Shown here piece by piece: positions 1 through 33,961 of a DNA stretch of 38,177 bases. The notes beneath the pieces are model-generated. The model was not told where the DNA came from, searched no databases, and was given only the letters and a program-made list of their open reading frames with translations. The stretch is from an uncultured Nitrososphaerota archaeon. Lineage in GTDB: Archaea; Asgardarchaeota; Njordarchaeia; Njordarchaeales; Panguiarchaeaceae. The position numbers were made by a program, and so were the translations under genes. Every line of letters begins with the position of its first letter. Position 1 is the first letter of the stretch. The stretch is taken from positions 26,606 to 64,782 of the forward strand of contig CAZVPA010000001.1 in the NCBI GenBank assembly GCA_964628995.1. Direction: 5' to 3'.

Positions 1-18
1 GAAACAGAAGAGAAAATC

Positions 19-393
19 GTGGCGAAGAAGGCAACATTTAGGGACATCAAAGAGGAGCTCAGATACATTGTAGAAAATTTTAACGAGGTAATGGTGCGGG
101 AGGGAGTTCTGGAAGCATTGATGGAGTTCGTGGAGGAATGGGATTTAAGGGAGTATCAAGATAAAATTGTGAATATACTCACAATGCTCGAGGAGGGGGA
201 GATAGCAGGGGGGAGTGAGGTATCCGTGATGTTCGAGCAGAGTGGTGACAGACTAACACTCGAGAGGGCTCTAGAGACAACGATATCGTCGCTTATGGAG
301 GCGGAGCCAAGAAATACCCCAAGGGGCCTATTTTATGTATATAGGTTTGGGGTGGCCAGAACTGGAAGGGTTGGGGGAGGCACAGAAGCTTGA
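19..393 (+). CDS. small protein, candidate ubiquitin-like (beta-grasp) modifier precursor; possibly 5'-truncated by the window edge
   Basis: GTG-initiated ORF whose frame stays open back to nt 1. The C-terminal ~60 aa shows a beta-beta-alpha-beta pattern by eye (VSVMFEQ / RLTLER / ALETTISSLMEA / LFYVYRF) and ends GRVGGG-TEA. It is the first gene of the E2-JAB-E1 cassette, and its stop at 391-393 overlaps the next ORF. Confidence 0.4.
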   Translation: MAKKATFRDIKEELRYIVENFNEVMVREGVLEALMEFVEEWDLREYQDKIVNILTMLEEGEIAGGSEVSVMFEQSGDRLTLERALETTISSLMEAEPRNTPRGLFYVYRFGVARTGRVGGGTEA

Positions 394-1756
394 TGTTGAG
401 GAAGCAATAAACCTAATAGTTGATTATATTAGCGACCTCACACCAATATTCATAATTGATAGGGGCCTCTATTTGCTCTCTAATGTTGATACTCTATCAA
501 ACAAGACAATAATTTTTGAGTATGGTGATGAGTCAAAAGAAATAAACTTGACGGGCCCCCTCAGCATGAAGTTCCTATCGGAGTCTCTATACGAACACCT
601 CCACATGGAGCGGCACCTAAACAGGCTTGTTGGTAGGTTGGAGGAAGAACTCAAAGAGATGATTGATGAGGACTTCTCAGTCGAGCTGATAGAATATAGT
701 AGATATGTGGAGTTCATGCTTAGGGTACTAAGAAAGGAATTTGGTGTGGATCCATCAAGAATACCGCTAGATGTCGACATGTATGTTGGTGGTAAGGGCT
801 TGGAGCAAGCCTTGATACTCATCCAGAGAGAGAAGAATAGGTCACTCCAATTTCTCCATGATTGGAGAATAGATAGGATTCTTCTTCCTCCGGAGGGAAA
901 GATCTATGTCATAACAAAGAAGGGGCTATTTGAATACTCGATTATAGAATCTGGGGATATTATTAGGATGCTGGGGGAGACAAGGAAGTTGGTAAAGGAT
1001 ATGAGATCTCTAGCGAGGGTATTATTATTGCTCGCGTGGAGGGGGCTTGAAGTAAGACGTGTGAAAAAGCTCAGTAGTATGGAGGCACAGCTAAGATCGG
1101 GGGCTATGTCCTCGGATAGATTGCTCTTAGCCCTCACACGTAAACTAGTGAGGGAAAAGCGGATAGAGTTCCCAGTAGTTGTTGAGGGTGTAAGAACAAG
1201 TATAGGGCTTAGGCTCATCAAAGGTAAGGTCTACGCATTTATCAGCTCGGGGGAATATGTTGTGAGGGAGGTGATGAATAAGAGAAAATTTGGTGTCTTC
1301 GTATACTTTCCACCAGTAGATCTATGTGTCGAGCTGGGCTCCGAGACACGCGAAGATGGTAGTGTAGTGATTTTTCCAGTAGAGTCCCCAGTAATGATTG
1401 ACGATTATCTACATCCATCCGTCCCCAGCAAGCATGGCAAAAGAACTATATGTCTCGGAAACCTCAGGTCATATGTGGACAAGATAGTTGCCACATCTAA
1501 AGATGTGGCACTGGAGGGCAAGCCAAAGGAGGTACCAGGCTTCAAGATTAGAATCTCCTCACCAGAATATGCACTAAAGGAAGTACTAACAACGGCCTTT
1601 CGTATTGTTAGGTATGGATATGTGCCAGGTGCGAATCCACATAACCATGCCGTGGATTGTACAAGTTTTAAGGGGGTAAGAATCGTTAAAAGCGAAGAAA
1701 TCAAAGAGTTAAAGGCCAGGGGAGTAGAAATAATAGATCCGCTATCGAGGAGATAG
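335..1756 (+). CDS. protein with C-terminal E2/UBC-like domain and an uncharacterised N-terminal ~285 aa
   Basis: C-terminal signature YFPPVD...VIFPVESPVMIDDYL-HPS-VPSKHGKRT-ICLGNL (His360 at nt 1412, Cys373 at nt 1451-1453) resembles the UBC motif HPN...G.ICLDIL. The true start may be TTG 371 rather than ATG 335. The stop TAG 1754-1756 lies 2 nt before the JAB ATG. Confidence 0.55.
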   Translation: MYIGLGWPELEGLGEAQKLDVEEAINLIVDYISDLTPIFIIDRGLYLLSNVDTLSNKTIIFEYGDESKEINLTGPLSMKFLSESLYEHLHMERHLNRLVGRLEEELKEMIDEDFSVELIEYSRYVEFMLRVLRKEFGVDPSRIPLDVDMYVGGKGLEQALILIQREKNRSLQFLHDWRIDRILLPPEGKIYVITKKGLFEYSIIESGDIIRMLGETRKLVKDMRSLARVLLLLAWRGLEVRRVKKLSSMEAQLRSGAMSSDRLLLALTRKLVREKRIEFPVVVEGVRTSIGLRLIKGKVYAFISSGEYVVREVMNKRKFGVFVYFPPVDLCVELGSETREDGSVVIFPVESPVMIDDYLHPSVPSKHGKRTICLGNLRSYVDKIVATSKDVALEGKPKEVPGFKIRISSPEYALKEVLTTAFRIVRYGYVPGANPHNHAVDCTSFKGVRIVKSEEIKELKARGVEIIDPLSRR

Positions 1757-1758
1757 CT

Positions 1759-2601
1759 ATGATAGTTGGTATATCAAGACATGTTATGGAGTTCTCGAAG
1801 AGAATATGTGGATATGTCAGGATGGAGTGGTATGCTTTCCCACTTGGTAGGGTACAGTGGATGGGTGATGAGGCAATATTCCTTGTTGAGGATCTCTATA
1901 TACCACGGCAGATCGCATCCAGAATGCATGTTGAGATCCCTGCGGATGTCAATGTTCAAATTATTGGTGAGTTGGATAGGCTTAGGAGTGTGGACAGGAA
2001 CATACTTCTCCTAGGTATGTGGCATAGCCATGGAGACTTAGGGGTATTTCACTCTGGGGAGGATATGAGTAATATAAGCAAGATATTCCAGGGGTTTCTG
2101 AAGTATCTTCCATCCCGCTATCATAGGGAGGAACTTATAGGGATGTTTAAGGGCAACATATATAGTGTCGAGCCAATAATAGTGGATAATATGTTCAGGG
2201 GGATAAAGTTTTCGTTTGGTGTTGCATCGATACAGATAGACTTTGATAAGCCAATAGAGAATATAGATTTCTTCGTAAGATGGTACAAGCATTTCTATGA
2301 CATAAAATGCTTCTTCGAGGTCCTAAGAGAATACTATAAGGTTGAACCAATAGTTAAGAATCTCTCAAAGAGGAAAGCATACTATCTGCTTAGTGTTGTG
2401 GTCAATAATCGAGGTGACATGTTGGCGGAGATTTTTATCCGGGAATATAGGGACTCAGAAATATCTATTGAATCCACAAAAGCAAAAATAAGGGTGGTGG
2501 ACATGAAGAAAAAGCCGTACTTTTTAACAAGAGCGAGTTTTGATGATATAATTAGAAGAATAGGGGGAGTGATGAGAACTGGGGAGCTCCCTAGTATTTG
2601 A
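1759..2601 (+). CDS. JAB/MPN+ (JAMM) metalloprotease, putative deconjugating/processing peptidase
   Basis: Complete JAMM motif: upstream Glu (DEAIFLVED) then WH89-S-H91-GDLGVFH-S99-GE-D102 (nt 2023-2064), i.e. HxHx7Sx2D. About 170 aa of uncharacterised C-terminal sequence follows. Confidence 0.85.
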   Translation: MIVGISRHVMEFSKRICGYVRMEWYAFPLGRVQWMGDEAIFLVEDLYIPRQIASRMHVEIPADVNVQIIGELDRLRSVDRNILLLGMWHSHGDLGVFHSGEDMSNISKIFQGFLKYLPSRYHREELIGMFKGNIYSVEPIIVDNMFRGIKFSFGVASIQIDFDKPIENIDFFVRWYKHFYDIKCFFEVLREYYKVEPIVKNLSKRKAYYLLSVVVNNRGDMLAEIFIREYRDSEISIESTKAKIRVVDMKKKPYFLTRASFDDIIRRIGGVMRTGELPSI

Positions 2602-2704
2602 CAGGCAGACATACCTATCCTGGTGGAACCAAGAGAAGATACATGATACATCAGTATACCTAATTGTCGATGAGCCCCTTGGTTTTATCCCAGCAATAGC
2701 GCTT

Positions 2705-3991
2705 GTGGCTGTGGGATATGGGCGTATCGTAATTATTGGGTCAAAGGAGGTGAGGGATTTCAAAATACTCTTCTACGACTATTCCGGGAATTTCCCAGTA
2801 GGCATAGAACGCTTTGTTGACATGTACCTAGGTAAATACCTAATGAACTATGGTATAGAGTTGGAACCAGTAACAATAAATCTGGCATCGAATGGGGCAC
2901 TCAATCTAGTACTTAAGATGATGGAGGATGATCCCAACGAGAGAAAGGTTATTCTAGACTTCTCAAATACCCCAGCAATAAAGATATATGTTAGGAAACT
3001 ATTCAACGAGACACACATACCCACATATGTATGCTCACTAGCCGGTGACCTCAGGATATATAATATGAAACCAATGGAGCGTGAAACCGCATTATTGCTC
3101 AGGAAGGAACATGGGGGTTTCCCGGAGATATACTCTAGAGCAGTAAAGGCACGGATGAAGGCGTTATCGGATGAGCATCTATATCTACTAGCCAGCGGCT
3201 TAGTAAGCGGAGAAATAACGATGGATATTCAAGATGAGGAAAATGAACTACATCTATCCACATACATGCTTGGCTATCCATTCAAGGAATTGGGGAGACT
3301 TAAGAGGCATTTTGGTGCGCTCAAGAAGGTTGCTATTGTGGGATGTGGGGCATTGGGAACGTTCTATGCGATACAACTGGCATTACTACAAAACATGAGG
3401 ATGTTAAGATTAAAAGAGGTAGTTTTTGTTGATCCAGATGAAATAGAGCTCGTGAACTTCAATAGACAGGTATTATTCTGGGGGGACACGATAGGTGAAC
3501 CAAAGGCCCAGGTAATGGCTGAGAGATTCCAGAGGATGGTGTACGACCCAGTTATAGTGCGTCATTATAATACGACATTTGAGGAGATTCAGAAGGAACT
3601 CACTGATGTGGATCTAATAATAGAGGGCGTAGATAGGTGGGAGGTCAGAAAGAGAATAACAAATTTTGCTATCGAGCACAAAATACCGCTCATTACCGCG
3701 GGTGTAGAAGTAATAAGGGGTCACGAAACAGTATATTTCCCAAACAAGACATACTGCCCGTATCACTCAATAAATCTTGCCGAGAAGAAAGATCCAGAAA
3801 ATCCAACCGGGTGCCTACAGATAGATCCATCAGTAATATTCTCAAACATGACAGTAGCATCACTAGCGATACTGAACTCCCTTATGCTCGAAGAGCCCCT
3901 AAATGGAGTCATGTACTACAGCCTGAAGGGGGAGTACGAGATATATGATAGATTTAAGGTCGACAGATTTAGCGGCTCGTGTGGGGACTGA
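2705..3991 (+). CDS. E1-like ThiF/MoeB/HesA-family adenylyltransferase with extra N-terminal ~205-aa domain
   Basis: Rossmann motif VAIVGCGALG (nt 3341-3358), VFVDPDEIELVNFNRQ (NFNRQ at nt 3455-3469), GEPKAQV, DLIIEGVDRWEVR, PLITAG, plus cysteines TYCPYH and NPTGC. GTG start. Confidence 0.8.
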   Translation: MAVGYGRIVIIGSKEVRDFKILFYDYSGNFPVGIERFVDMYLGKYLMNYGIELEPVTINLASNGALNLVLKMMEDDPNERKVILDFSNTPAIKIYVRKLFNETHIPTYVCSLAGDLRIYNMKPMERETALLLRKEHGGFPEIYSRAVKARMKALSDEHLYLLASGLVSGEITMDIQDEENELHLSTYMLGYPFKELGRLKRHFGALKKVAIVGCGALGTFYAIQLALLQNMRMLRLKEVVFVDPDEIELVNFNRQVLFWGDTIGEPKAQVMAERFQRMVYDPVIVRHYNTTFEEIQKELTDVDLIIEGVDRWEVRKRITNFAIEHKIPLITAGVEVIRGHETVYFPNKTYCPYHSINLAEKKDPENPTGCLQIDPSVIFSNMTVASLAILNSLMLEEPLNGVMYYSLKGEYEIYDRFKVDRFSGSCGD

Positions 3992-5528: not shown

Positions 5529-6560
5529 TTACTTATATACTCTTTCATAGTTTCTGGGTCGGAGTTCTAGTGGGGTCTTACCATTCCATAATAGTATTAC
5601 TCTAGCGCGGGGTACCTCGTCTTTTATCTCATATCCTATTAGTTGTTCTAGTGTGATGGCGAAGGATCTTATATCCTCCATGCTTGGCTGTGCTTTCTTT
5701 GGTAGTCTCTCCCTAGATCTACCGACCCATGAGTATCCCTTTACCTCTACGAAGTCGGGTTGGGCCAACTCAATGAGTTTCGCATATTTTTCTGGATGTA
5801 CGAGGTTATGGTCTTTTACGGCTGTTATCCTGAATACGGTTCTTATCCCCAGAGATGGGACTAGTTCGAGTGTCTTGATGAGATTTTCCCATTGTTCTCT
5901 CGCATTCCAGAGAGGTCTAGTCATGCTTGCCCATATCTTGAATTCTGGGCCCACAACACTAATATATAGCTGATGGGGGAGAGTATGCATCCTCTCCAAT
6001 ACCTCTGGGAATGTACCATTCGTAACAATAAATGTCGTCATACCATGTTTCTTACCAAGATACATTAGGTCATCAATCTTTGGATACATCAATGGTTCCC
6101 CTATGAGAGATGTAGCCAAGTGATCAGGCCCCTTCATAGCGTCTTCCCACATCTCCCTGTCAACACTCTTGTTATGTTTGGGATCATATGCCCTGAGCGT
6201 CTTAAAGTATTCCTTAACAACAGCATTAAATAGTTCCTCTGGGGAATCCCAATCGATCTCTTCCGGGTTGGATATTTTAAATGGTGGGATACCCAAGTCC
6301 ATCCTATGGACACGCCAACAGAATACACAGGCTTGGTTACACTCAACTATGGGCGACCATTGGATACAGCGGTGTGTACGAGTACCAAAGAACCAATACT
6401 TATAGCACATGATTCTCCTCTTGAGTGCGGCCTTAAAATAGTAGCATGGTTCGAACGCACCATGCCTACCAATAATCCTATATCCAGCATGTATCAGTGA
6501 GTCTAGATACTTCTTCGGCATGGGTATCTGCATTAATTGCTGAGCTATCCTAATCACCAC
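5529..6560 (-). CDS. taw1: radical SAM tRNA 4-demethylwyosine synthase (Taw1/TYW1 family)
   Basis: Radical SAM cluster motif CNQACVFCWR is typical of TYW1/Taw1. The ~340-aa size and an additional upstream Cys-rich region fit the archaeal enzyme. Confidence 0.8.
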   Translation of the reverse strand: MVIRIAQQLMQIPMPKKYLDSLIHAGYRIIGRHGAFEPCYYFKAALKRRIMCYKYWFFGTRTHRCIQWSPIVECNQACVFCWRVHRMDLGIPPFKISNPEEIDWDSPEELFNAVVKEYFKTLRAYDPKHNKSVDREMWEDAMKGPDHLATSLIGEPLMYPKIDDLMYLGKKHGMTTFIVTNGTFPEVLERMHTLPHQLYISVVGPEFKIWASMTRPLWNAREQWENLIKTLELVPSLGIRTVFRITAVKDHNLVHPEKYAKLIELAQPDFVEVKGYSWVGRSRERLPKKAQPSMEDIRSFAITLEQLIGYEIKDEVPRARVILLWNGKTPLELRPRNYERVYK

Positions 6561-7714: not shown

Positions 7715-8803
7715 ATGGGGAACAAAATAGTAGAGAAACTCCTTGAATCTCCATGTGCAAGGGAAGCATTATTATGGGAGGATCTCGGGAACAATAGAGT
7801 GCGATGCTATGTGTGTGAGCGTAGGTGTATCATACCTGAGGGAATGCGGGGAATGTGTGGTGCCAGATATAATTATGGTGGGGAACTCTATGTCCTGACG
7901 TATGGGAATATATCATCCATATCGAATAATCCGATGGCTAAGAAACCGTTCTTCAATTTCCATCCAGATGAGTATGCACTAACAATAGGGAGTTGGGGAT
8001 GTAACTTTACGTGTCCTTGGTGCCAGAACTATGAGATCTCAAAAACGAAGGTAAGGGCATGCTACTATTTATCCCCAGAGGAGTTTGTTAGGAAGACAAA
8101 AGGGATGAGTAGTGGGACAAGTTTCTCCTTTAATGAGCCTCTTGTCACACTATTTGAGTATTCCCTCGATGTGATGCCTCTAGCTAGGGAGAATGGGTTA
8201 TTTAATACGTATGTCACCAATGGTTATATGACCCAAGAAGCATTGGAGCTACTTGTTAAGCATGGTCTGGATGCTGTGAATATAGATATCAAGGGTTGTA
8301 GGGGGAGTATTGAACGGTGGATAGGGGCTGATGTCGAGGTTGTCTGGAGAAACGCAAGGATGTTTAAGGAGAGGGGGATACATGTGGAGATAACAACATT
8401 GGTGATTCCTACAGTTAATGATGACGAGGAATGCCTGAGGTATATTGCTAGGAGAATAAGGGAGGAGTTGGGTCCAGAGACCCCCTGGCATGTTACTAGG
8501 TATTTCGCGATGTATCGGGCACTAGATATGGGGCTTCCAGTCCAGACAGAGACTCGGACTGTTGAGAGGGCATATAAAATTGGGAAGGATGAGGGCCTAT
8601 ATTACGTGTATGTTGGTAATGTCTGGCCATCGCATCCATGGGAGAATACTTATTGTCCCTACTGTGGGGAGTTGCTTGTGAGTAGGGTAGGTTTTAGTGT
8701 ACAGGTCCTGATAGATGAGCCATATTGTCCTAAGTGTGGAGAGCTTGTCCACCTAATATTTAGGAGTGGAAGTAGAGTCTATGATTGGCGGAAGATTAAA
8801 TAG
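7715..8803 (+). CDS. amrS: AmmeMemoRadiSam-system-type radical SAM enzyme (PflA-related activase family)
   Basis: N-terminal Cys motif CYVCERRC...GMCG, PMAKKPFFNFHP, radical SAM box GCNFTCPWCQNYEIS, C-terminal CPYCG...CPKCG. The start is set at ATG 7715 (MGNKIVEKLL). The track ORF start at 7412 would overlap the divergent DHH gene. Confidence 0.7.
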   Translation: MGNKIVEKLLESPCAREALLWEDLGNNRVRCYVCERRCIIPEGMRGMCGARYNYGGELYVLTYGNISSISNNPMAKKPFFNFHPDEYALTIGSWGCNFTCPWCQNYEISKTKVRACYYLSPEEFVRKTKGMSSGTSFSFNEPLVTLFEYSLDVMPLARENGLFNTYVTNGYMTQEALELLVKHGLDAVNIDIKGCRGSIERWIGADVEVVWRNARMFKERGIHVEITTLVIPTVNDDEECLRYIARRIREELGPETPWHVTRYFAMYRALDMGLPVQTETRTVERAYKIGKDEGLYYVYVGNVWPSHPWENTYCPYCGELLVSRVGFSVQVLIDEPYCPKCGELVHLIFRSGSRVYDWRKIK

Positions 8804-8832: not shown

Positions 8833-11800
8833 GTGAGGTCTGTCATCATATGTATGTTGGTAATTGTGTTGTTGTTCTATCCATATAGCCATGTAATATA
8901 TGGTCTGAGTATTGCTGGTGTGGAAAACAAAAGCATCGGTAAAGGGGATTTGGGAAGTAGGAGTTTTTCATCGGGCATTATTGATGGATCCACAAATAGG
9001 CGGTCAATAAACACCACTACTAATAGTCGGGGTGACGAGATTGGAATATTCAGGATGGAGGGAAACCTCGGGAAGCTCACAGTAAGATATAGACCAAGAA
9101 TTCAGAGAAATCCTAGGAAGTGGACTTTTATGGTGTATTTGGATGCTGATAATAACCTTGAAGATGCTGGGATAGATGATTTCTTGGAGATGAGTTCAGT
9201 AGGATCAACGGACGATGTAGCCATTGTCGTATTATTTGATAGGACACCAGACTATGTAGACTATTATGGTGATTGGTCAGAGACTCTTCTATTCTATGTT
9301 GATAGTGGAGTACTACCATATCGTGAGAATGCAGAGGCAAGTTTTGGGGAGGCAAACATGGGTAACCCCCAGACATTGGTTGATTTTGTATCCTATGTGG
9401 TTTCTAATTATCCTGCCGACCATTATGCTTTGGTTTTGTGGGATCATGGGGGTGGGTTGAGCGGTGTGTGTTGGGATGACACCAATGGTGGGGATAACCT
9501 GAATCTCTTCGAGATAAGGAATGCATTAGAGACGGTATGCAAGGAATTGGGTATAAGAATTGATGTTGTCGGATTTGATGCATGCCTCATGGGGATGATG
9601 GAGGTAGCATACCAATTGAGGGATTATGTTGATTATGTAGTTTTTTCTCAAGAAGTAGAACCGGGGGATGGATGGCCTTACAATGATATACTTGATCCCC
9701 TTGTGTCAAATCCCTCCATGAGTCCGTCAGAGCTGGCATCGATGATCGCTCAAAAATATATAGAATCATATAACGGTGGAAGCCAAGGGTCTGTCGAGTG
9801 GGTAACACAGTCGGCTATAAATGTTTCATATCTAGCATTCCATGTTTTTAGTAAGATTAACAGGCTTGTTGGTGAATTGCTGAGATATTATGATGATTAT
9901 TCGTCGGCTATTTCGTCTGCTGTTGGAGATACTGAGAGTTTCTATTATTCTTACGAGAAAGATATGATTCATTTCCTCAAGCTTTTATATGATGATGTCA
10001 GCAATGAGAGTCTGAAAGCAATTATTAATGAAACAATATACGCAATAAATGGCTCAATCCTTTATGCTGGGCATTTATGGTATCATCCAAATGCTTATGG
10101 GCTCTCAGCATATTTCCCAAACTATTACTCGGAATCTTATGATGATATATTGATGTCCTTACACCACCAATGGAGTGAGTTTGCTAAGAGATTGGGGAGG
10201 AAGTATTCTAAGCTATGGTTTTATGATATTGACTTCAGGGGTTGGGACCGTGACTCTGACGGCTATTACGAAGTTGCCAAGGTGTATATTGATCTTGATG
10301 CAACAAGTGTTGTAGAGGTAGAAGTAGTGGTGTATGGGTATGATGGATCTACGGAATACAAGCTGGGGGAGCATAGCACTACCATAAATGGGTCAACGAG
10401 TAATGATGCCTTCCTGGTTTTCCTAAAATATATCCCAACGAAATCTATATATGTACTTAGGTTTGATGTTATGATGAGGAATGCTCCCTCTAGGGACCTA
10501 TATTATTACTGTGATGATGACGTGGTGGACATACCGCTGGAGGAGGCCCCGTGGGTGGAGATAGTATATCCAGAGAACGTCTCGGTTTTCAATGTTACCT
10601 CATTGACTATCAGATGGGAATACAGCAATGCAACGCCCCTAGATCATTTCGAGATAAGTCTTAATGGCTCTGCGTGGCTGGATGTGGGTGATCAGACAGA
10701 ATACGTATTAACGGACTTAACTGAGTCCCTATATGTTTTTAGTGTAAAGGCATGGGATATTTATGGTAATATTGTAAATAGTTCGGTGGTCTTTGGGATA
10801 GACTTTACACCCCCGATGGTGAGTATTATATCTCCCCTGAACCATACTGTGGCTACATCAGTATTCGTAGACATAGTGTGGGAAGGTTGGGATAACCTCC
10901 TTATAGATCACTACCAAGTAAAGGTCGATGATAGGGAATGGGTGGATGTGGGCTTGTCGCAGAGATATACCCCAGTACTTGCTGAAGGGAGCCATGTGGC
11001 AACGGTTAGGGTATATGATAAAGCTGGATATTGGAGTGAGAGTAGGATTATATTCGTTGTTGATATTTCTGGCCCACAAGTCAAGATCAGGAATCCCCGG
11101 GCAGGTCTTAAAGTTGGCCAGGTGGTTAACGTATCATGGCTGGTGAATGATATAGCGAGTGGGGTTTCTAGAGTTGAACTATATCTGGATGATTCACTAA
11201 AGGCTGTGTTCTTGGAGGGAGTAAATATGTCGTCTTGGTTTATTATTTCTGGTCTCAGCATCAATGCTAGGCATGTGGTTAAGGTGGTCGCCTATGACAA
11301 TGCAGGATTTACTGGTTCAGATGAGATAGAGGTGGATACTGTGCCTCTTGAACTATCCATAGAGGAACCAGTTGGCAATGTTATTGTGGATAGGTCTTGG
11401 TTTATTCTAGGTTGGAGATGTAGCAGGGATACGGCTACATTCCAAATATATGTGAATGGCACGAGAATCGCCGAGGTTGTTGGAAAGAATAGTCTTAACA
11501 TTAGTCTGGGTGAGGGGGTTTGGAATGTCTCTGTGGTTGCGGTAGATATGGATGGTATGGTGTTGGACTCGAAGATCATCGTGGTCGATATTTTGGGGCC
11601 ATATATAGAGATATTGTCCCCTCAAAACAATACGGTGATCGAGTCTAGGGACCTAACGGTCAGGTGGCGGGTGGATGATATTTCTGGGGTAAAGAATGTA
11701 TCCATAAGAATAGATCAGGAAGAATGGATTAATGTTACTGGTAGGGATACGTATACGTTTAAGAATCTTACTGTCGGGGAGCATGTGATAGAACTTGAGG

Positions 11801-11973
11801 CATGGGATGGCGTAAATCACTCAAGTAAGGTTGTACTAGTAGTAGTTGTTAGAGAAGGGCTGAGTACAGGGTATGGTAGTGCTATCTGGTTAATCCTTGG
11901 TGTTCTTATAGTATTGGTATCTCTCGTGGTATTCATGATTAGAAGGAAAAAACATAGAGGAACCAGAGAATAA
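8833..11973 (+). CDS. membrane-anchored surface protein with clostripain-like (peptidase C11) domain and five Ig-like repeats
   Basis: N-terminal signal/TM segment. C11-like His/Cys dyad context: MVYLDADNNLE, VVLFDR, LVLWDHGGG, VGFDACLMG. Many N-x-S/T sequons. C-terminal TM AIWLILGVLIVLVSLVVFMI followed by RRKKHR. The start could be ATG 8851. Confidence 0.7.
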   Translation: MRSVIICMLVIVLLFYPYSHVIYGLSIAGVENKSIGKGDLGSRSFSSGIIDGSTNRRSINTTTNSRGDEIGIFRMEGNLGKLTVRYRPRIQRNPRKWTFMVYLDADNNLEDAGIDDFLEMSSVGSTDDVAIVVLFDRTPDYVDYYGDWSETLLFYVDSGVLPYRENAEASFGEANMGNPQTLVDFVSYVVSNYPADHYALVLWDHGGGLSGVCWDDTNGGDNLNLFEIRNALETVCKELGIRIDVVGFDACLMGMMEVAYQLRDYVDYVVFSQEVEPGDGWPYNDILDPLVSNPSMSPSELASMIAQKYIESYNGGSQGSVEWVTQSAINVSYLAFHVFSKINRLVGELLRYYDDYSSAISSAVGDTESFYYSYEKDMIHFLKLLYDDVSNESLKAIINETIYAINGSILYAGHLWYHPNAYGLSAYFPNYYSESYDDILMSLHHQWSEFAKRLGRKYSKLWFYDIDFRGWDRDSDGYYEVAKVYIDLDATSVVEVEVVVYGYDGSTEYKLGEHSTTINGSTSNDAFLVFLKYIPTKSIYVLRFDVMMRNAPSRDLYYYCDDDVVDIPLEEAPWVEIVYPENVSVFNVTSLTIRWEYSNATPLDHFEISLNGSAWLDVGDQTEYVLTDLTESLYVFSVKAWDIYGNIVNSSVVFGIDFTPPMVSIISPLNHTVATSVFVDIVWEGWDNLLIDHYQVKVDDREWVDVGLSQRYTPVLAEGSHVATVRVYDKAGYWSESRIIFVVDISGPQVKIRNPRAGLKVGQVVNVSWLVNDIASGVSRVELYLDDSLKAVFLEGVNMSSWFIISGLSINARHVVKVVAYDNAGFTGSDEIEVDTVPLELSIEEPVGNVIVDRSWFILGWRCSRDTATFQIYVNGTRIAEVVGKNSLNISLGEGVWNVSVVAVDMDGMVLDSKIIVVDILGPYIEILSPQNNTVIESRDLTVRWRVDDISGVKNVSIRIDQEEWINVTGRDTYTFKNLTVGEHVIELEAWDGVNHSSKVVLVVVVREGLSTGYGSAIWLILGVLIVLVSLVVFMIRRKKHRGTRE
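10555..11850 (+). repeat. five tandem ~85-90-aa Ig-like domain repeats at protein level, inside the surface protease gene
   Basis: Recurring pattern [IV]xIxxPxNxTV...[VL]x[IV]xWxxxD...[hydrophobic]xxxE[IV]xLxG..W..V......Y.F.L..G.H.[IV].V.A.D..GN....[IV][IV]..[VI]D..xP, seen five times in the translation. Confidence 0.6.
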
Positions 11974-13631: not shown

Positions 13632-15863
13632 GTGTATGGTGGTGAATACATATTGGAGAGCACTATCCGATATAGAATTCTAAAGAATAAGTATGTGGCA
13701 ATTTCATTCAGCAACATTTTATCCAAAAATGCATTAATTTTGTGCCAAGTCGCTCAATATGCGACCAATAGGCTGTCTATGTCCAGAGAGTATGTTGACT
13801 TACTTAGAAATATGATTATGAGACTTGGAGAATTTTGTAGAAATATTTTTATAGTACTGCAAAAGAGAGATGATATTATCAACTGTTATCTGGTATTGTA
13901 CCTAAGATCGCTCCTATCTAGGAGTCTTAAGGACAAAATTAGACAAGCTATTGCTTGGTTGGAAAGTTTTGCAGAGTTGTCTGGTATTCGATTCACATTT
14001 ATGGATTATAAATCTATTCGTAGTCTCTTGTCTTTTCTTACAACAAAAAAACGAGTAACATGGTATTCGGGGGGTATGGAGATACTGCCATCTGGTGGGA
14101 ATAAATCAGCATTCGCACCAAAAAATATATCTTTCTATGGTGCCCTTGCGAGATACTCGGTTGATACCGTTGATCTGAATCTTTTGTCTTCCGATTTTAT
14201 TCATAATGGACGATTTATAATATTTGGACTCGATTCTTACTCTCTGAGAACCGCGGTGAGCCGGGCGATGGGGCGTACTCTCAATAAATATGCTATTATG
14301 AATAATGGATTAAGCAGAGAAGCATATCCGCGGGATCAACTTTATCAGGTAAAAGTTAGGATAATACTTGGTTCAGGGGGGGAGATAACTGAGATAACAA
14401 GTATGTCGACGAGTAGTGATAGCTCAGAGAAAATTATGTGGCTTCCTATGGCGGTTATTCCCCATAGGATCAGATATAATGTTATGAGAAACAATGATTG
14501 TGGTCTCTTGACACTCTTTCGTGTATTTATCGATGAGAAACCCCATATAACAATAAAGGCAGATATAGAGGTACTCACATACTTTATTTCTCTATTATTC
14601 CATATCCTAATGCTTGCAAAGAAGAGAAGAATATATATGCCGGTTCTGGATATTCAGGATGAAGCGACCAAAGGCGAGATACACATTGGTTGGCAGCTTC
14701 AGTCAGGAGAACCAATAGCCCCTTTTTATCTCAAACTTGTTGACATCCAACGTCATATATTGATTCTTGGCAGAACCGGCATGGGGAAGTCAAGGTTGGC
14801 AAGAATAATAGTTGAAGGGCTCCTTGCTGAACAATACAGCAAGGTGTGGATCTTTGATTTCCATAGGGAATACATCGACTTAGCGTCGAGATATGGCTTT
14901 GAGGTATTTATACCAGGGACATTAGAATATCCTCTAATGATAAATATTTTTGAAAGTATTGGTGAAAACCCCGAGTCCTACTCCACATTCCTAATGTCCC
15001 TTCTTCTCGAGACCATAAAGTTGAGGGGTGGTGAGGTCTCAGCACAAATGGAAAGAGCTCTCTCATATGCATTATGGTCTACAGTAACTGGAGACGAACC
15101 CAGCCCCCTCACATTCCTCAGGAATTTACTTAAATGGTGTAAGGAAGTAGAATCTGATTTACCAACGGCACTATATACGTTCTATGCCGTTATAAATAGG
15201 CTTAAGTCCATATTTTCTGGGATAAGCAGGAACATATTTTGGGTCAAAAGAAGCAACATACATATTAACGAACTAAGAAATAAGAATGTGATTTTTGATT
15301 TATCCTTCCTATTTAAGCGGAATCTCAAGAGAGAAATATTATTGCTCATAAATGTATTACTTCGTTACCTTGTAATGGATATGTTTCGGGAAGGTATAAA
15401 CAACAATAATAGGCCAAAATTATGTCTTGTGGTCGAGGAAGGGCGTTACCTCATGCCGTGGAGAAGAATGGAATCCTCAATGGAAACAACAGCCATGGAG
15501 GATTTTGCGACACTAGCTAGGAAATATGGTTTGGGGCTTGTGGTTATCTCACAATCACCCTACACGATAAGTCCAGACATAATTTCAAATGCTGGAACAC
15601 TATTCATGATGAATGCGGAGATCCCAGAACACGAGCACATAATCTCCGGAGATGAGCAATTGAGGAGATATATCCAAATAATGCCACCAAGGGAGGCAAT
15701 AGTGAGACTGACATCCAGTCCAGCGCTGATCCATATTAGGGTAAGAGAGATAGAGCCGGATTTAGCATCCGAACCAATAATCCAAAGATCGCGCAGGGAA
15801 GATACAGAAAGATATCTGATAGAAATACCCTTCGAGGAGTACATAAAAAGCATTCTCACATAG
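13632..15863 (+). CDS. HerA/FtsK-superfamily (DUF87-type) P-loop ATPase with uncharacterised ~360-aa N-terminal region
   Basis: Walker A ILILGRTGMGKS (nt 14769-14792), WIFDFHREY, Walker B LCLVVEEGRYL, ARKYGLGLVVISQSP...NAGTLFMM. GTG start; the true start is uncertain (a Met at codon 50 is also possible). Confidence 0.6.
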   Translation: MYGGEYILESTIRYRILKNKYVAISFSNILSKNALILCQVAQYATNRLSMSREYVDLLRNMIMRLGEFCRNIFIVLQKRDDIINCYLVLYLRSLLSRSLKDKIRQAIAWLESFAELSGIRFTFMDYKSIRSLLSFLTTKKRVTWYSGGMEILPSGGNKSAFAPKNISFYGALARYSVDTVDLNLLSSDFIHNGRFIIFGLDSYSLRTAVSRAMGRTLNKYAIMNNGLSREAYPRDQLYQVKVRIILGSGGEITEITSMSTSSDSSEKIMWLPMAVIPHRIRYNVMRNNDCGLLTLFRVFIDEKPHITIKADIEVLTYFISLLFHILMLAKKRRIYMPVLDIQDEATKGEIHIGWQLQSGEPIAPFYLKLVDIQRHILILGRTGMGKSRLARIIVEGLLAEQYSKVWIFDFHREYIDLASRYGFEVFIPGTLEYPLMINIFESIGENPESYSTFLMSLLLETIKLRGGEVSAQMERALSYALWSTVTGDEPSPLTFLRNLLKWCKEVESDLPTALYTFYAVINRLKSIFSGISRNIFWVKRSNIHINELRNKNVIFDLSFLFKRNLKREILLLINVLLRYLVMDMFREGINNNNRPKLCLVVEEGRYLMPWRRMESSMETTAMEDFATLARKYGLGLVVISQSPYTISPDIISNAGTLFMMNAEIPEHEHIISGDEQLRRYIQIMPPREAIVRLTSSPALIHIRVREIEPDLASEPIIQRSRREDTERYLIEIPFEEYIKSILT

Positions 15864-16110: not shown

Positions 16111-16911
16111 TCATTCACTATCTTCGATCTCCACTTCCTTCGTAAGTTTAGAATGCAAGATCTTCCTCATGACCCGCCGGGGTAAGGCTACATCCTCCCT
16201 GCTCACCACAGCAGGCCGCAATAGCCTTATCCCAATACCATCCACAATGTCTATTTCCCATAGCCTTAAATCGTGATTGGTTTGTCTCATTTTTTCGATA
16301 ATTAGGTACCTCCGCAATCTTCCGCCTCTGATGAATCTCCTAAATCTTATTATACCATCCGCAACATGTTCAATACCAAAACCAAAGGCATCGCTCGTTG
16401 TTATGGCATATTGCGATGTAGCCAGAATAGTCATATTCCAGCGTGCTAATGTCCTCTTAACATAATAGGCATACTTCCGCGCCATCGCTGGCTTGTCCAA
16501 CCAAAAAGCAGACATAGAATCAATAACGACCCTAGCATGTTTATATCCAAACATCTTTTTGGCCTTTATTATCATAGAGACAAGAGTATCAACAGACAGC
16601 TTCAGTAGGGACCACTCATCAGACTTATCCCTCATAAGTCCATCAATCATTATTAGGTCCCCACGTGTCATATATTCCAGAAAATCCCAGCCAAACATCT
16701 CGGCCTGCCTAATGATGCTGTCCTTCGTCTCCTCGGTAGTAACATAGATCCCTGGTTCACCATTTTTTAATCCCTCCCATATGAAGTGCATGCAGAGAAT
16801 GGTCTTCCCGGTGCCTGGTTCTCCTGTCACAGCAACAAAGAATCTCTTGGGTATTCCGCCCCCTATCAGAGAGTCCAGTTTCGGGATCCCTATTGATATG
16901 CGTTCCAACAC
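16111..16911 (-). CDS. KaiC/RadA-like RecA-superfamily ATPase
   Basis: GIPKLDSLIGGGIPKRFFVAVTGEPGTGKTILCMHFIWEG, YVTTEE, Walker B-like RVVIDSMS. GTG start. Confidence 0.75.
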   Translation of the reverse strand: MLERISIGIPKLDSLIGGGIPKRFFVAVTGEPGTGKTILCMHFIWEGLKNGEPGIYVTTEETKDSIIRQAEMFGWDFLEYMTRGDLIMIDGLMRDKSDEWSLLKLSVDTLVSMIIKAKKMFGYKHARVVIDSMSAFWLDKPAMARKYAYYVKRTLARWNMTILATSQYAITTSDAFGFGIEHVADGIIRFRRFIRGGRLRRYLIIEKMRQTNHDLRLWEIDIVDGIGIRLLRPAVVSREDVALPRRVMRKILHSKLTKEVEIEDSE

Positions 16912-30831: not shown

Positions 30832-32256
30832 TCAGATACCAATGAGTTTTCGTCCAGATTTACCAATGAATTTTTTGATGATCTTTGAAAGCACACCACG
30901 GGTATCGAGAATCCTTATGAATGAATCAGCCATGACATCAGCAAGCCCTTCACGTATAACTGTGTGGAGGTGTACATGTATCATTGGTTCTGGATAACCA
31001 ACGGGGCTTACATAACCAAGAATCCTAACTGTCTCAAGTGCCTTGGAGTCGGCATTTCTTCGTGAATCCAAATCGCTTCCAAGAATGTTGCGTGGATAAG
31101 TATACTGTATGACGAAATCCCTATACTTTACATATATGATACCGTACAGGCCATACTCCCCATATACCTCATCAGCTATTTCTGGAATAACACTATGTGT
31201 TGCCTTCCTGAGGTTGTTTTTCTTCCCAGTTCTTCTGGTCACATATTTTCCAGAGGCTGGTACTTCAAGCTGGCCTGTATGCATGAGATATTCTCCATCA
31301 TCCAGCGAGAAGTCTAGTGCGAATGCATCAGTGAACATTCTGAATAGTTTATGGTCAAGCTTTTTAGTTAGTATTCTGCTTTCAGGCTCTTTGTTGAGCC
31401 ATAACAATGGAACTTTTTTCCTTCTTGCAGTACTCAGGAGTCTCCTTAGTCCCTCCATCATGAAGTTTGTCTCCATGAACATCGCTATAAAGTTTATGAG
31501 GGATATTTCTCCTTCCTCTGGTATCGAAAATTTTTGATCCACCGAATCCAATATCTCTTCAATATTCCTGACATAGCTTGATAGGAACGTACTCACGATT
31601 TTTCTTGGTTCGTTAGTATCACCAAAAATATCTCTTCTTAGTATTTTGAGTGTTGTATCACTTATGGTATCGCATAGGTCTATAAATTGCTGTTCAGCAC
31701 TCCTAGCGTCATCAGTTTGGGTCTCTAGGTACTTGGTAAATATACCATAAACATCACGGTATAGGTGCTCGATCCCCCATCTCGCAGAGAGGAGTGTGGA
31801 TATGTATGAGCCATCAAGAACAGCAAAGTCAACATTGTTATTATCTATCATGTATGTGGTCGTTATGAATTCCATACCCTTCATTATATTGTTTGCACGT
31901 GTACCAACATAGAATCTTGGGATAAGTATGAGAAAACATATGTCCGGGGTCAACACATATTTCCTAACAAAGCGGGCTTTTTCTCCCCCAATCTCGAAAA
32001 GTAGTGATGAGGCTGAGAAGACAGCAACTCCTGCCCCTCTGCGTTCAGATATTGCGTTACTACCATCAGTAAAGACACCAATAACACTGTCTCCGATACT
32101 TATTTCGCTTAGTAACCCAAGCCTTATAGCATTTGGATACTTCTCACTAACAATATGCTTGAAATCTGATAGTTTCCTGAGGAGTTCGTTGGGAGACCCA
32201 ATAGACAACATACTCTTTAATCTATCCGCTATTATGTTACTCACTACTGGGATCAC
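30832..32256 (-). CDS. nurA: NurA-like nuclease
   Basis: Translationally coupled to herA by a 20-nt overlap. DGS motifs GVFTDGSNAIS and FAVLDGSYIS are typical of the NurA domain. Confidence 0.55.
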   Translation of the reverse strand: MIPVVSNIIADRLKSMLSIGSPNELLRKLSDFKHIVSEKYPNAIRLGLLSEISIGDSVIGVFTDGSNAISERRGAGVAVFSASSLLFEIGGEKARFVRKYVLTPDICFLILIPRFYVGTRANNIMKGMEFITTTYMIDNNNVDFAVLDGSYISTLLSARWGIEHLYRDVYGIFTKYLETQTDDARSAEQQFIDLCDTISDTTLKILRRDIFGDTNEPRKIVSTFLSSYVRNIEEILDSVDQKFSIPEEGEISLINFIAMFMETNFMMEGLRRLLSTARRKKVPLLWLNKEPESRILTKKLDHKLFRMFTDAFALDFSLDDGEYLMHTGQLEVPASGKYVTRRTGKKNNLRKATHSVIPEIADEVYGEYGLYGIIYVKYRDFVIQYTYPRNILGSDLDSRRNADSKALETVRILGYVSPVGYPEPMIHVHLHTVIREGLADVMADSFIRILDTRGVLSKIIKKFIGKSGRKLIGI

Positions 32257-33961
32257 CAGTGAAAAACTCAGTTATCTTCAAGCCCTTATCTCTCTTTTCG
32301 CTATCCGTTTCTTTGAGTAGTTTTCCATATCCCTCGTATAGCTGGTCTATGATCTCATCAAGGTCTTCCTCAGACAATTCCTGTGACCACTCCTCAGAAA
32401 CATTGATATCTCTACCCCCGAGCTCTATATCGATCCCAAATTCCTCCTTGGCTACATGCCTGAATAGGTCGATCTTAGCAATACATGGAATGGGAACAGA
32501 GAAGCCTGAAATTAAGGCCTCACCAACCCCAAGCCCAGCCAGAGATCTCGTAAGGTACCAAGTAATATCCTCTATCGACTCCATGATATATCTCTGATCC
32601 GAGGGATTAACAAGCCTAAGAGCGATGAGAGTACCACACTGAGCCAGAACAGTACTGGAAAGATCCTTTGGTCTCTGGGAAACAATAATAAGCCCAGTAC
32701 CAAACTTCCTCCCCTCCTTCGCAATCCTCTCAATTATACTCTTAGATGGAGCATAAGTATCCCTAGGAGCATATACATGTGCCTCCTCAACAGCGACTAT
32801 TGTTGGTATAACCCTCCCCTTAAGCTTTGCCTCCACGGTAACCCTAAAGAGGGACCTAAGTAGCATGGAAACAACCGCGGTTTGTACGTCAGATGGTACA
32901 CCTCCCAGAGCAATTATTTTGAGGCCAGGACTAATGATAGGCTCAATAACCTTCCTAAAAACAGCTTTAGGGTTATCTTTCACACTCAGACATTCACATG
33001 GGTTAAAAATGAACTCGTACTCAGCACTATATCTTGCATCCTCAAGCTTATCCAATAGGGAATCAATAGAGTCCCTCCTAGCACCGGATCTTCCGATCCT
33101 CTGGATGAGCTCTTCAATATCGAAATACCTCGGAACATCCAGATAGGCTCCCTTTATATCCCTAAGGGCCATCCTAAGGATTCTTCGTTGCGTACTCGCT
33201 TGTGTCCCCAAACCGAGTAGGGAGAACCACTCATCAATATTCAGAAACCAGTATGGTATCTCCAAGTTTTTGAGTGCATCCTTCATTTCGAGCTCCTGCT
33301 CGATTATATCGCGATACTTACCAACGGGACAATATATTGTTACTTTTCCCCGGGAAACCCTGTTTATTGCTGACAAGCCAATATATTCTGAGTGTGTATC
33401 AATAAGAAGAATCCTTGCGGCCGGGAGACCCTTGAGTATCCTAACAATAAGTGTTGCGAGGGTATTAGACTTGCCAGCGCCTGTCATTGCTAGGATGGCC
33501 ACGTGTTTTGTCGCTAATTGGTTAAGATCTAAGGATACTCGAACCTTAGGGTCGTTTGCTAGAGTGCCTATCCTTATGTGGTTCTGGTCATCTCTTGAGA
33601 ATATCTTATTTAGCTCGCTAGCACCCATGAGCTCAACGATATTTCCAGGGCTTGGTATGGCATCATATTTCCTCTCTATTTTGCCATCACCAGTAAGCGT
33701 ACCAACGACAGTAACTAAGATATCGTTCCTTCTCAAGATGAGTTCATCATAATGCTCTGGAAACATTGAGAGGGATCTTGCCTGCCTATATAGCTCGTCA
33801 GAAAGTTCGAGGGAGGCCACAATAGCGATCAGGTCCCTACCAGAATCGGTCTTGATTCTTAGGAATTGCCCTCTACGTCCAACATATTTTAGATCCTCAT
33901 CGTCAAAACTTACCCTTATATAATCTCCACGGACCTGGACTACCCGTCCCTTCACAACCAT
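32237..33961 (-). CDS. herA: HerA-type hexameric helicase/ATPase
   Basis: N-terminal HAS-barrel-like MVVKGRVVQVRGDYIRVSF, Walker A HVAILAMTGAGKSNT, LLIDTHSEY, Walker B TIVAVEEAHVYAP, GRKFGTGLIIVSQRP. Confidence 0.8.
   Translation of the reverse strand: MVVKGRVVQVRGDYIRVSFDDEDLKYVGRRGQFLRIKTDSGRDLIAIVASLELSDELYRQARSLSMFPEHYDELILRRNDILVTVVGTLTGDGKIERKYDAIPSPGNIVELMGASELNKIFSRDDQNHIRIGTLANDPKVRVSLDLNQLATKHVAILAMTGAGKSNTLATLIVRILKGLPAARILLIDTHSEYIGLSAINRVSRGKVTIYCPVGKYRDIIEQELEMKDALKNLEIPYWFLNIDEWFSLLGLGTQASTQRRILRMALRDIKGAYLDVPRYFDIEELIQRIGRSGARRDSIDSLLDKLEDARYSAEYEFIFNPCECLSVKDNPKAVFRKVIEPIISPGLKIIALGGVPSDVQTAVVSMLLRSLFRVTVEAKLKGRVIPTIVAVEEAHVYAPRDTYAPSKSIIERIAKEGRKFGTGLIIVSQRPKDLSSTVLAQCGTLIALRLVNPSDQRYIMESIEDITWYLTRSLAGLGVGEALISGFSVPIPCIAKIDLFRHVAKEEFGIDIELGGRDINVSEEWSQELSEEDLDEIIDQLYEGYGKLLKETDSEKRDKGLKITEFFTGDPSSE

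Follow-up and report, generated by a model that had tools for sequence, protein, structure and literature searches.

Four genes at the start of a 38,177-nucleotide stretch of archaeal DNA (hereafter the window; GenBank assembly GCA_964628995.1, contig CAZVPA010000001.1, positions 26,606 to 64,782 of the forward strand) form a cassette that, on balance, probably constitutes one transcription unit for a self-contained ubiquitin-like (Ubl) modifier system. In order, the four open reading frames (ORFs) encode a candidate modifier, an orphan protein in the place where a ubiquitin-conjugating enzyme (E2) might be expected, a JAB/JAMM metalloprotease, and an E1-like adenylating enzyme of the ThiF type. 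The cassette is Bil-like in its logic, with an orphan candidate conjugating enzyme, and is not itself a member of the Bil family. It appears to be a tagging system of the ubiquitin type, rare and unusual, and a new form of the prokaryotic Ubl/JAB/E1 operon whose E2 step is a candidate; literature searches found no published description of it. The features of the cassette are as follows.

1..393, + strand: ORF1, candidate pro-modifier (Ubl candidate); 5' end cut by the window edge; always the first gene of the cassette
335..1756, + strand: ORF2, 473-residue orphan, candidate Ubl-conjugating (E2-equivalent) enzyme; always the second gene of the cassette
1097..1753, + strand: ORF2 C-terminal domain (residues 255-473), with an invariant block; H360 codon 1412-1414, C373 codon 1451-1453
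1759..2601, + strand: ORF3, JAB/JAMM metalloprotease of 280 residues; JAMM residues H89-S-H91...S99..D102 at 2023-2064
2579..3298, + strand: ORF4 N-terminal half, putative degenerate ThiF-like Rossmann domain and candidate inactive adenylation domain (IAD), from profile matches via distant homologues
3299..3991, + strand: ORF4 C-terminal half, active ThiF/E1 adenylation domain (AAD; Pfam ThiF); candidate catalytic Cys412, codon 3812-3814

A sequence-only reading had described this locus as four tightly coupled genes on one strand, and both the ORFs (1 or 19..393, 335..1756, 1759..2601, and 2705..3991 in the ORF list) and their junctions were confirmed. If ORF2 begins at ATG 335, it overlaps ORF1 by 59 nucleotides and the ORF1 stop (391-393) lies inside it; the ORF2 TAG (1754-1756) is separated by a 2-nucleotide gap from the JAB ATG at 1759, and ORF3 and ORF4 overlap by 23 nucleotides. 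The genes are real and not chance ORFs, because in independent loci the same order recurs among homologues with 34 to 67% identity. This fixed order and tight coupling favor a shared function in modifier conjugation, and ORF2 stands where the E2 does in the Bil gene order, which is Ubl-E2-deubiquitinase (DUB)-E1 (BilA, BilB, BilC, BilD) (PMC10557695).

Several gene boundaries differ from those of a simple ORF list. The frame of ORF1 is open to the window edge with no upstream stop, and GTG 19 is not its true start; since full-length homologues have 140 to 159 residues, beginning ..LKYVVIINGIPIPIVR.., about 20 ORF1 codons are missing. Called starts of ORF2 homologues fall 8 to 59 nucleotides before, or 10 nucleotides after, the ORF1 stop, and in the window (335-393) the first ∼19 ORF2 codons from ATG 335 overlap the conserved ORF1 C terminus in the other frame. 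Conservation at the ORF2 N terminus (MYIGLGWPELEG against MCTNLGWRELEG in homologue P0003) may thus be imposed by ORF1, leaving the true ORF2 start uncertain. The frame of ORF4 is open from 2576, and the peptide upstream of GTG 2705 (LGSSLVFDRQTYLSWWNQEKI...) is conserved in all loci; at a homologous Leu-Gly-Ser position the start codon is CTG in four loci and TTG in two (sites compared: window 2576-2705, L003 2633, L004 2892, L005 12653, L002 5359, and L009 5566). Given the conserved upstream peptide and the CTG or TTG leucine codon, we place ORF4 at 2579-3991 (470 residues) and not at GTG 2705, so that it overlaps the JAB stop. With such a start, gene callers and the simple ORF list begin the E1 29 to 43 codons late and miss its FDRQ arginine motif. 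In three loci the E1 CTG stands directly behind an in-frame stop. A JAB-E1 readthrough fusion was rejected, as the two genes share a frame only in L005 and elsewhere lie in different frames or are separated.

The E1-like component can be assigned most directly. ORF4 is firmly placed among ThiF/E1 adenylating enzymes by its match to Pfam ThiF (PF00899; 109 bits against a cut-off of 28.1, E 2.3e-31, residues 208-393 of the GTG-start protein), by PDB matches that include ThiF, UBA6, UBA3, and MccB, and by alignment of its C-terminal half with ThiF/MoeB (hhalign, E 8e-15). All four adenylation motifs picked out in the sequence-only reading are present: GCGALG and NFNRQ are invariant, as is EGVD, and GEPKA and DLIIEGVDR are also found. 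The N-terminal ∼240 residues gave no match in Pfam or PDB searches, nor to the protein's own C-terminal half in hhalign. The same half aligned with the N-terminal Rossmann domain of P0035, a distant full-length homologue (hhalign probability 91%, E 1e-6), and with the active ThiF domain of P0036 (E 5.5e-3), both of which have two to three ThiF stretches by Pfam. It is also co-linear with Escherichia coli ThiF/MoeB over 138 columns, although this alignment is weak (E 0.07). An invariant F-D-R9-Q motif is present, and VDEPLG stands in place of GxGxxG. This transitive profile evidence suggests that ORF4 joins a degenerate (inactive) to an active ThiF adenylation domain, a layout that, together with an N-terminal arginine, is a hallmark of BilD and eukaryotic E1s (Chambers et al., PMC10557695). 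The earlier view that both the E2-slot protein and the E1 carry uncharacterized N-terminal domains therefore needs amending for the E1, whose N-terminal half resembles a degenerate ThiF domain in the P0035 and P0036 profiles, and stands for ORF2, whose N-terminal region matched no family.

In the crossover loop of ORF4, C393-P-x-H396 is followed, 15 residues on, by the invariant C412, which aligns with the crossover-loop cysteine region of ThiF/MoeB; the last three residues are C468-G-[D/H] (D in the window). In all five aligned sequences the stretch between CPxH and C412 is just 15 residues long, which leaves no room for an inserted CYS domain. From this pattern we infer a zinc site formed by C393, H396, C468, and D-or-H470 and a ThiF/UBA5-like catalytic Cys412. 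ORF4 was rejected as a housekeeping MoeB/ThiF, in agreement with the sequence-only reading: it scores 78 bits with TIGR02356 (cut-off 275) and 44 to 61 bits with MoeB models (cut-offs 266 to 449), and no molybdopterin or thiamine genes (Moa, Moe, Thi) were found in any locus examined. Distant full-length tandem-ThiF E1 homologues (25 to 28% identity) occur in other uncharacterized JAB-linked cassettes, at L012 1-6988 and L011 1-5534. The former encodes, in order, an HD protein, a 163-residue protein, an AAA+ ATPase, a 150-residue protein ending QQGG-YRF, a JAB protein (330 residues), a 219-residue protein, the E1, and a 130-residue protein; the latter encodes a JAB-like protein (458 residues), the E1 (507 residues), and an 889-residue protein with repeated SH3-like segments. 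ORF2 homologues and recognizable E2s are absent from both loci.

ORF3 is assigned just as firmly to the JAB/JAMM metalloproteases. The complete E...HxHx7Sx2D motif noted earlier is there, with E23, H89, H91, S99, and D102 all invariant. Prok-JAB (PF14464) matches five of five family members (best E 4e-5), with the window protein at 21.6 bits, slightly under the 25-bit cut-off. In profile searches of the PDB the best match was the Caldiarchaeum Rpn11-like protein 6fjv (E 1.5e-4), followed by BilC (8tyx_B, E 0.07), and among PADLOC models only generic JAB ones were matched (E 0.02 to 0.05). The catalytic core occupies residues ∼20 to 110 and is followed by a family-specific C-terminal extension of ∼170 residues.

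The candidate modifier is recognizable by its C terminus. In the window ORF1 ends ...GRVGGGTEA*, with the codon of the invariant GRVG glycine at 373-375 and the tail GGTEA behind it. The sequence-only reading took GRVGGG plus a three-residue tail as the signature; these residues are present, but the alignment identifies GRVG, and not GGG, as the conserved element. Across the family G143, V145, and G146 (P0008 numbering) are invariant and conservation halts there, so that the motif G-[RH]-V-G is followed by 0 to 7 unconserved residues. Four loci (L003/4, L013, and L017/18) end exactly at this motif, and the tails elsewhere are GGTEA, GGSKV, KQDLQA, EIRYI, and KWEGSS. ORF1 thus has the conserved C-terminal glycine, bare or behind a short unconserved tail, that is looked for in a Ubl modifier, and the pattern is the one expected of a modifier that has to be processed. 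There are parallels in BilA, from which BilC removes up to nine unconserved residues behind a conserved glycine (PMC10557695), and in Caldiarchaeum pro-ubiquitin, whose C-terminal extension is cut by Rpn11 (PMC5654768). Strand-like segments near the N terminus (KYVVIING-IPIPIVR) and the C terminus (YVY.FGVA) are only suggestive of a beta-grasp fold, and ORF1 matched nothing in Pfam or the PDB profile set. One homologue (L002 2644-3165) is an outlier, with a longer called N terminus and an end of ...SLSLSESPRSGG (PRSGG) followed by LICIHKCILM, and not ...GVA..GRVG; this departure may reflect genuine divergence, an assembly error, or an artifactual frameshift.

ORF2, the protein in the E2 slot, is the least familiar component. 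Its most conserved parts are a block around H360 and C373 and a second block, RYGY.PGA.P...C442. The first, H360-P361-S/T362 ... G368-x-R370-x-x-C373-L374-G375, is invariant in eight to nine sequences down to 34% identity, and two further cysteines, C331 and C442, are also invariant. The prediction that Cys373 and His360 would be conserved is upheld in nine homologues. The full-length AlphaFold2 model (mean predicted local distance difference test [pLDDT] score 53) has a poorly modelled N-terminal half, and its Foldseek search was uninformative. The model of residues 255-473 is confident (pLDDT 84.4, predicted TM-score [pTM] 0.82) and shows a helix, seven antiparallel strands, a loop bearing HPS and the cysteine, and then several helices. 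This modelled topology would fit a UBC core enlarged by two hairpin insertions and, equally well, a different fold. Of the E2/UBC-like active-site signature proposed for the end of ORF2, the residues H360, P361, S362, and C373 stand and are invariant (S/T at 362); kinship with E2s is not supported, neither profile nor model matching UBC.

In the reading we favor, the JAB protease would trim the ORF1 tail to expose the glycine and may also reverse conjugates. The active E1 domain would adenylate that glycine, with Arg9 of the degenerate domain completing the active site, and Cys412 in the short crossover loop would take the modifier as a thioester, C393, H396, C468, and D/H470 holding a structural zinc. 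ORF2 would receive the modifier on Cys373, within the H-P-S...C-L-G block that is co-linear with the UBC active site, and hand it to lysines of targets, its N-terminal region of ∼250 residues perhaps picking the target or docking the E1. Whether ORF2 is in fact a thioester-forming conjugating enzyme is, in our estimate, evenly poised.

The order ORF1-ORF2-JAB-E1 is kept in every locus recovered, at least nine independent metagenome or metagenome-assembled genome (MAG) loci (the window, L001; L002; L003/L016; L004; L005; L009; L013-L015; L017/L018; and L019/L020), and the synteny that the sequence-only reading expected of relatives thus holds in all those found. ORF2 relatives form only four clusters in a 5.8-billion-protein index and only three clusters at 50% identity in an exhaustive hidden Markov model search of 1.84 billion representatives; the orphan family comprises ∼10 sequences among roughly 15 billion proteins. 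The E1 family has ∼10 close clusters at 47 to 67% identity, after which identity falls abruptly to 28%. Among the relatives, only two Candidatus Njordarchaeota MAGs and one MAG that NCBI calls “Crenarchaeota archaeon” carry a taxonomic label, and Njordarchaeota are placed in the Asgard kingdom Promethearchaeati. The cassette is specific to a narrow Njordarchaeota-related (Asgard) lineage. These labels, and the presence of TYW1 downstream of the cassette, bear out the earlier view that the host is an archaeon. Two downstream genes matter for what follows.

5529-6560: TYW1, downstream of the cassette
7715-8803: radical SAM gene, downstream of the cassette

Neighboring genes are shared across loci, a ∼440-residue protein, a 177-residue protein, and a DeoC-family aldolase upstream and an amidohydrolase downstream, joined by TYW1 in two loci. 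This sharing extends to loci whose ORF2 proteins are only 35 to 55% identical, which argues for vertical chromosomal inheritance and not for a defense island; the downstream side differs in some loci, with CbiMNQO in L013 and other genes again in L019. Because the chromosomal setting is conserved, we favor a lineage-fixed cellular function over a mobile defense island. AT-rich, TATA-like boxes stand ahead of ORF1 in loci with intact upstream sequence, so the transcription unit appears to begin with ORF1, which answers the earlier concern that the upstream side is cut by the window. In all loci that reach far enough, an uncharacterized block lies directly upstream of the cassette, consisting of an FG-GAP-like protein of ∼550 to 573 residues, proteins of ∼200, ∼440, and 177 residues, and then the DeoC-family aldolase (L005 4956-9864; L013 337-5306; L009 243-2836; L002 13-2547; L019 388-1608).

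Several observations weigh against the predicted conjugation by this cassette. ORF2, its C-terminal domain, fragments of it, and all family members matched nothing in Pfam, PADLOC, NCBIfam, or PDB sequence and profile searches. An hhalign comparison of the C-terminal domain with a small UBC alignment (UBE2D2, UBE2N, and UBE2I) stayed at chance level, whether the two predicted hairpin insertions were kept or removed (P 0.1 to 0.2), with nothing beyond the 19-column HPx..C block. By Foldseek, the best PDB match to the C-terminal model had an E value of 0.1, with BPI/TULIP-like and Bet v 1-like folds nearest (TM about 0.25) and no E2 among the best 50 matches listed; in BFVD the best E value was 0.05, and three E2-annotated matches appeared only at E 0.6 to 1. 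Neither structure nor profile comparison thus finds a UBC fold in ORF2. The sequence-only reading had staked itself on the ORF2 C terminus modelling as one, and at face value it does not, the model being confident and having no UBC or E2 counterpart in the PDB. The three invariant cysteines and one histidine of ORF2 could mark a metal site rather than a catalytic center. In addition, ORF1 showed no similarity to ubiquitin, NEDD8, or SUMO in hhalign, the putative E1 cysteine, at the ThiF Cys184 position, would be equally compatible with sulfur-carrier chemistry, and no E3, target, or effector could be identified.

One alternative is a sulfur-carrier or biosynthetic pathway, in which ORF1 is a carrier like ThiS, MoaD, or QbsE whose tail is cut by the JAB protein as in QbsD/QbsE or Mec+/CysO, ORF4 adenylates it and thiocarboxylates it via Cys412, and ORF2 is a metal or cluster enzyme that uses the thiocarboxylate, for example in tRNA or cofactor thiolation. 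The alignment of C412 with the ThiF/MoeB crossover-loop cysteine speaks for it, as do ThiF/MoeB models being the best NCBIfam matches of ORF4, the cysteines and histidine of ORF2 with no E2 fold match, and the tRNA-modification (TYW1) and radical SAM genes downstream. We nevertheless consider it improbable: every ThiF/MoeB equivalog score is far under its cut-off (e.g., 78 versus 275 bits), no rhodanese domain, PP-loop, thiamine, or molybdopterin genes are nearby, and the downstream neighbors vary (CbiMNQO in L013, others in L019). Moreover, ORF1 has ∼150 residues and a single conserved C-terminal glycine, not GG, and a tandem inactive-plus-active ThiF protein is a hallmark of conjugating E1s, sulfur-transfer E1s being homodimers (PMC10557695). 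The lack of detectable E2 homology or fold in ORF2 is also what would be seen if ORF4 conjugated ORF1 directly, as in archaeal SAMP/UbaA, and ORF2 were a dedicated target, adaptor, or scaffold. The large size of ORF2 (473 residues, the N-terminal half poorly modelled) would suit such a role, and the distant tandem-ThiF/JAB cassettes L011 and L012 lack ORF2 and have third proteins of quite another kind. However, ORF2 conservation peaks at H360...C373 and RYGY.PGA.P...C442, which is typical of an active or metal site and not of a passive target, and the first of these blocks is co-linear with the UBC signature, although not at statistical significance; we give E2-independent conjugation only a small chance.

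A third possibility is antiviral defense of the Bil type, in which the cassette, as the archaeal equivalent of BilABCD, would attach its modifier to structural proteins of viruses during infection. The gene order matches Ubl-E2-DUB-E1, ORF4 shares with BilD the IAD-plus-AAD layout, an N-terminal arginine at position 9, and a C..C pattern of the zinc type, the PADLOC BilD and Cap2-type E1 models match the AAD, and the JAB profile finds BilC at E 0.07. The sequence-only reading had seen in this locus both the component set and the order of Bil. The order is indeed identical, but the component set is not recovered: the BilA, BilB, and BilC models find no match (for ORF1 and ORF2, not even at E≤10 across eight members), BilD matches weakly, and the E2 identity is not supported. 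The BilD match (E 2e-8) is limited to the Rossmann core, is no better than generic ThiF, and is weaker than that of the Cap2-type models (6e-12), and ORF4 has no 80-residue CYS domain. By sequence, then, the cassette falls outside the Bil family. Nor does its location resemble the patchy, mobile, defense-island setting of Bil; it is a housekeeping one, in which the same flanks (the 177-residue protein and DeoC; amidohydrolase and TYW1) persist while ORF2 is only 35 to 55% identical, as vertical inheritance would have it, and no known defense genes adjoin the cassette. Bil-type defense therefore seems to us quite unlikely. Within the favored reading of a modifier system, a bolder version, which we rate as rather unlikely, is that ORF2 represents a structurally new, non-UBC class of Ubl carrier or ligase, either having reached an HPx...Cys site independently or combining E2 and E3 in one 473-residue protein. 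Its partner would be a minimal, pseudo-dimeric E1 of eukaryote-like form, and the pathway, inherited vertically and specific to the Asgard lineage, would tag host proteins.

The rest of the window is ordinary chromosomal DNA, encoding malic enzyme, KaiC, a beta-CASP RNase, NUDIX, HtrA, HerA/NurA, an M1 peptidase, and a C11 peptidase. Scans of the window proteins found no known defense genes next to the cassette, and an Rfam scan found no Rfam families in the window. The product of the C11 peptidase gene (8833-11973, +), probably a cell-surface protease, has 1046 residues and combines a clostripain (peptidase C11) domain with several bacterial Ig-like domains, a hydrophobic C-terminal anchor, and a basic tail behind it. 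Two HerA-like (DUF87) ATPases are present (window genes 13632-15863, +; 30832-32256, −; and 32237-33961, −). Together with a NurA nuclease, the second makes up the pair that usually serves end resection in archaea, and the first (743 residues) is unpaired and adjoins a KaiC-like ATPase (16111-16911, −).

To our knowledge, complete Ubl conjugation operons outside eukaryotes are few, namely, those of Caldiarchaeum and Asgard archaea, Bil, CBASS Cap2/Cap3, and Bub. Each known one has shaped ideas on the origin of ubiquitin signaling. The present cassette has an E1 with the inactive-plus-active layout of eukaryotic E1s and BilD and yet a primitive, ThiF-type crossover-loop cysteine, which makes it a plausible intermediate form, and its E2 slot is filled by an orphan family with a confidently predicted fold that has no structural neighbor. 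If conjugation is its true function, it would offer a compact four-protein system for dissecting E1 evolution, possibly a new conjugating-enzyme fold, and a protein-tagging pathway in relatives of the eukaryotic ancestor. If ORF2 is not an E2, the cassette would still be a new JAB/tandem-E1 modifier system.

Among known systems, SAMP/UbaA/JAMM, CysO/Mec+, and QbsE/QbsD likewise combine a small Gly-ending carrier with a JAB protease for its trimming or release and with an activator of the ThiF type that has a cysteine in its crossover loop. In SAMP/UbaA and the sulfur-carrier systems the E1s are single-domain homodimers, no E2-like partner is encoded, and the carriers end in GG and have ∼70 to 100 residues, whereas the cassette E1 is a tandem ThiF protein with an obligatorily linked fourth component, a conserved cysteine protein. 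With the UBC/E2 superfamily (PF00179, Prok-E2), ORF2 shares H-P-[ST]-x5-G-x-R-x2-C-L-G, co-linear with the UBC H-P-N-x4-G-x2-C-L although not to statistical significance; an F-P...P-x-x-x-P stretch lies ahead of this block, and helices and a P-G-A-x-P loop come after it. ORF2 differs in having Ser/Thr in place of Asn, a His-Cys spacing three residues longer, and seven modelled strands instead of four, and no E2, UEV, RWD, Atg3/10, Cap2, or BilB was among the Foldseek matches listed.

The ubiquitin operons of Caldiarchaeum subterraneum and Asgard archaea encode ubiquitin, E1-like, E2-like, small RING, and Rpn11 proteins (PMC5654768, PMC6043591). The cassette resembles them in its archaeal host, a pro-modifier with a C-terminal extension, a JAB/Rpn11-type protease, and a ThiF-type E1. 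Their parts, however, are recognizable as ubiquitin, UBC, and RING, whereas neither ORF1, roughly double the size of ubiquitin, nor ORF2 matches any family, and there is no RING; identity with a eukaryote-like Asgard ubiquitin operon was rejected for want of ubiquitin, UBC, or RING matches. The closest parallel is with BilABCD types I and II (PMC10557695), which share the four-gene order of Ubl, E2 slot, JAB, and E1, a modifier with one conserved glycine and a short unconserved tail, a JAB protease in the operon, and a single-chain E1 that would likewise pair a degenerate N-terminal with an active C-terminal adenylation domain; the N-terminal arginine and the metal-ligand pattern of the crossover loop and C terminus are also held in common. 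Where BilD has a helical CYS domain of ∼80 residues, the candidate Cys412 of ORF4 sits in a 15-residue crossover loop as in ThiF/UBA5, and the zinc ligands appear to be CxxH and CxD/H in place of CxxC and CxC. The E2-slot protein, at 473 residues, carries H-P-S...C, with the histidine before the cysteine, in place of CEHH and shows no match to the UBC fold, and the whole is encoded in an archaeon, in conserved chromosomal synteny rather than in a defense island.

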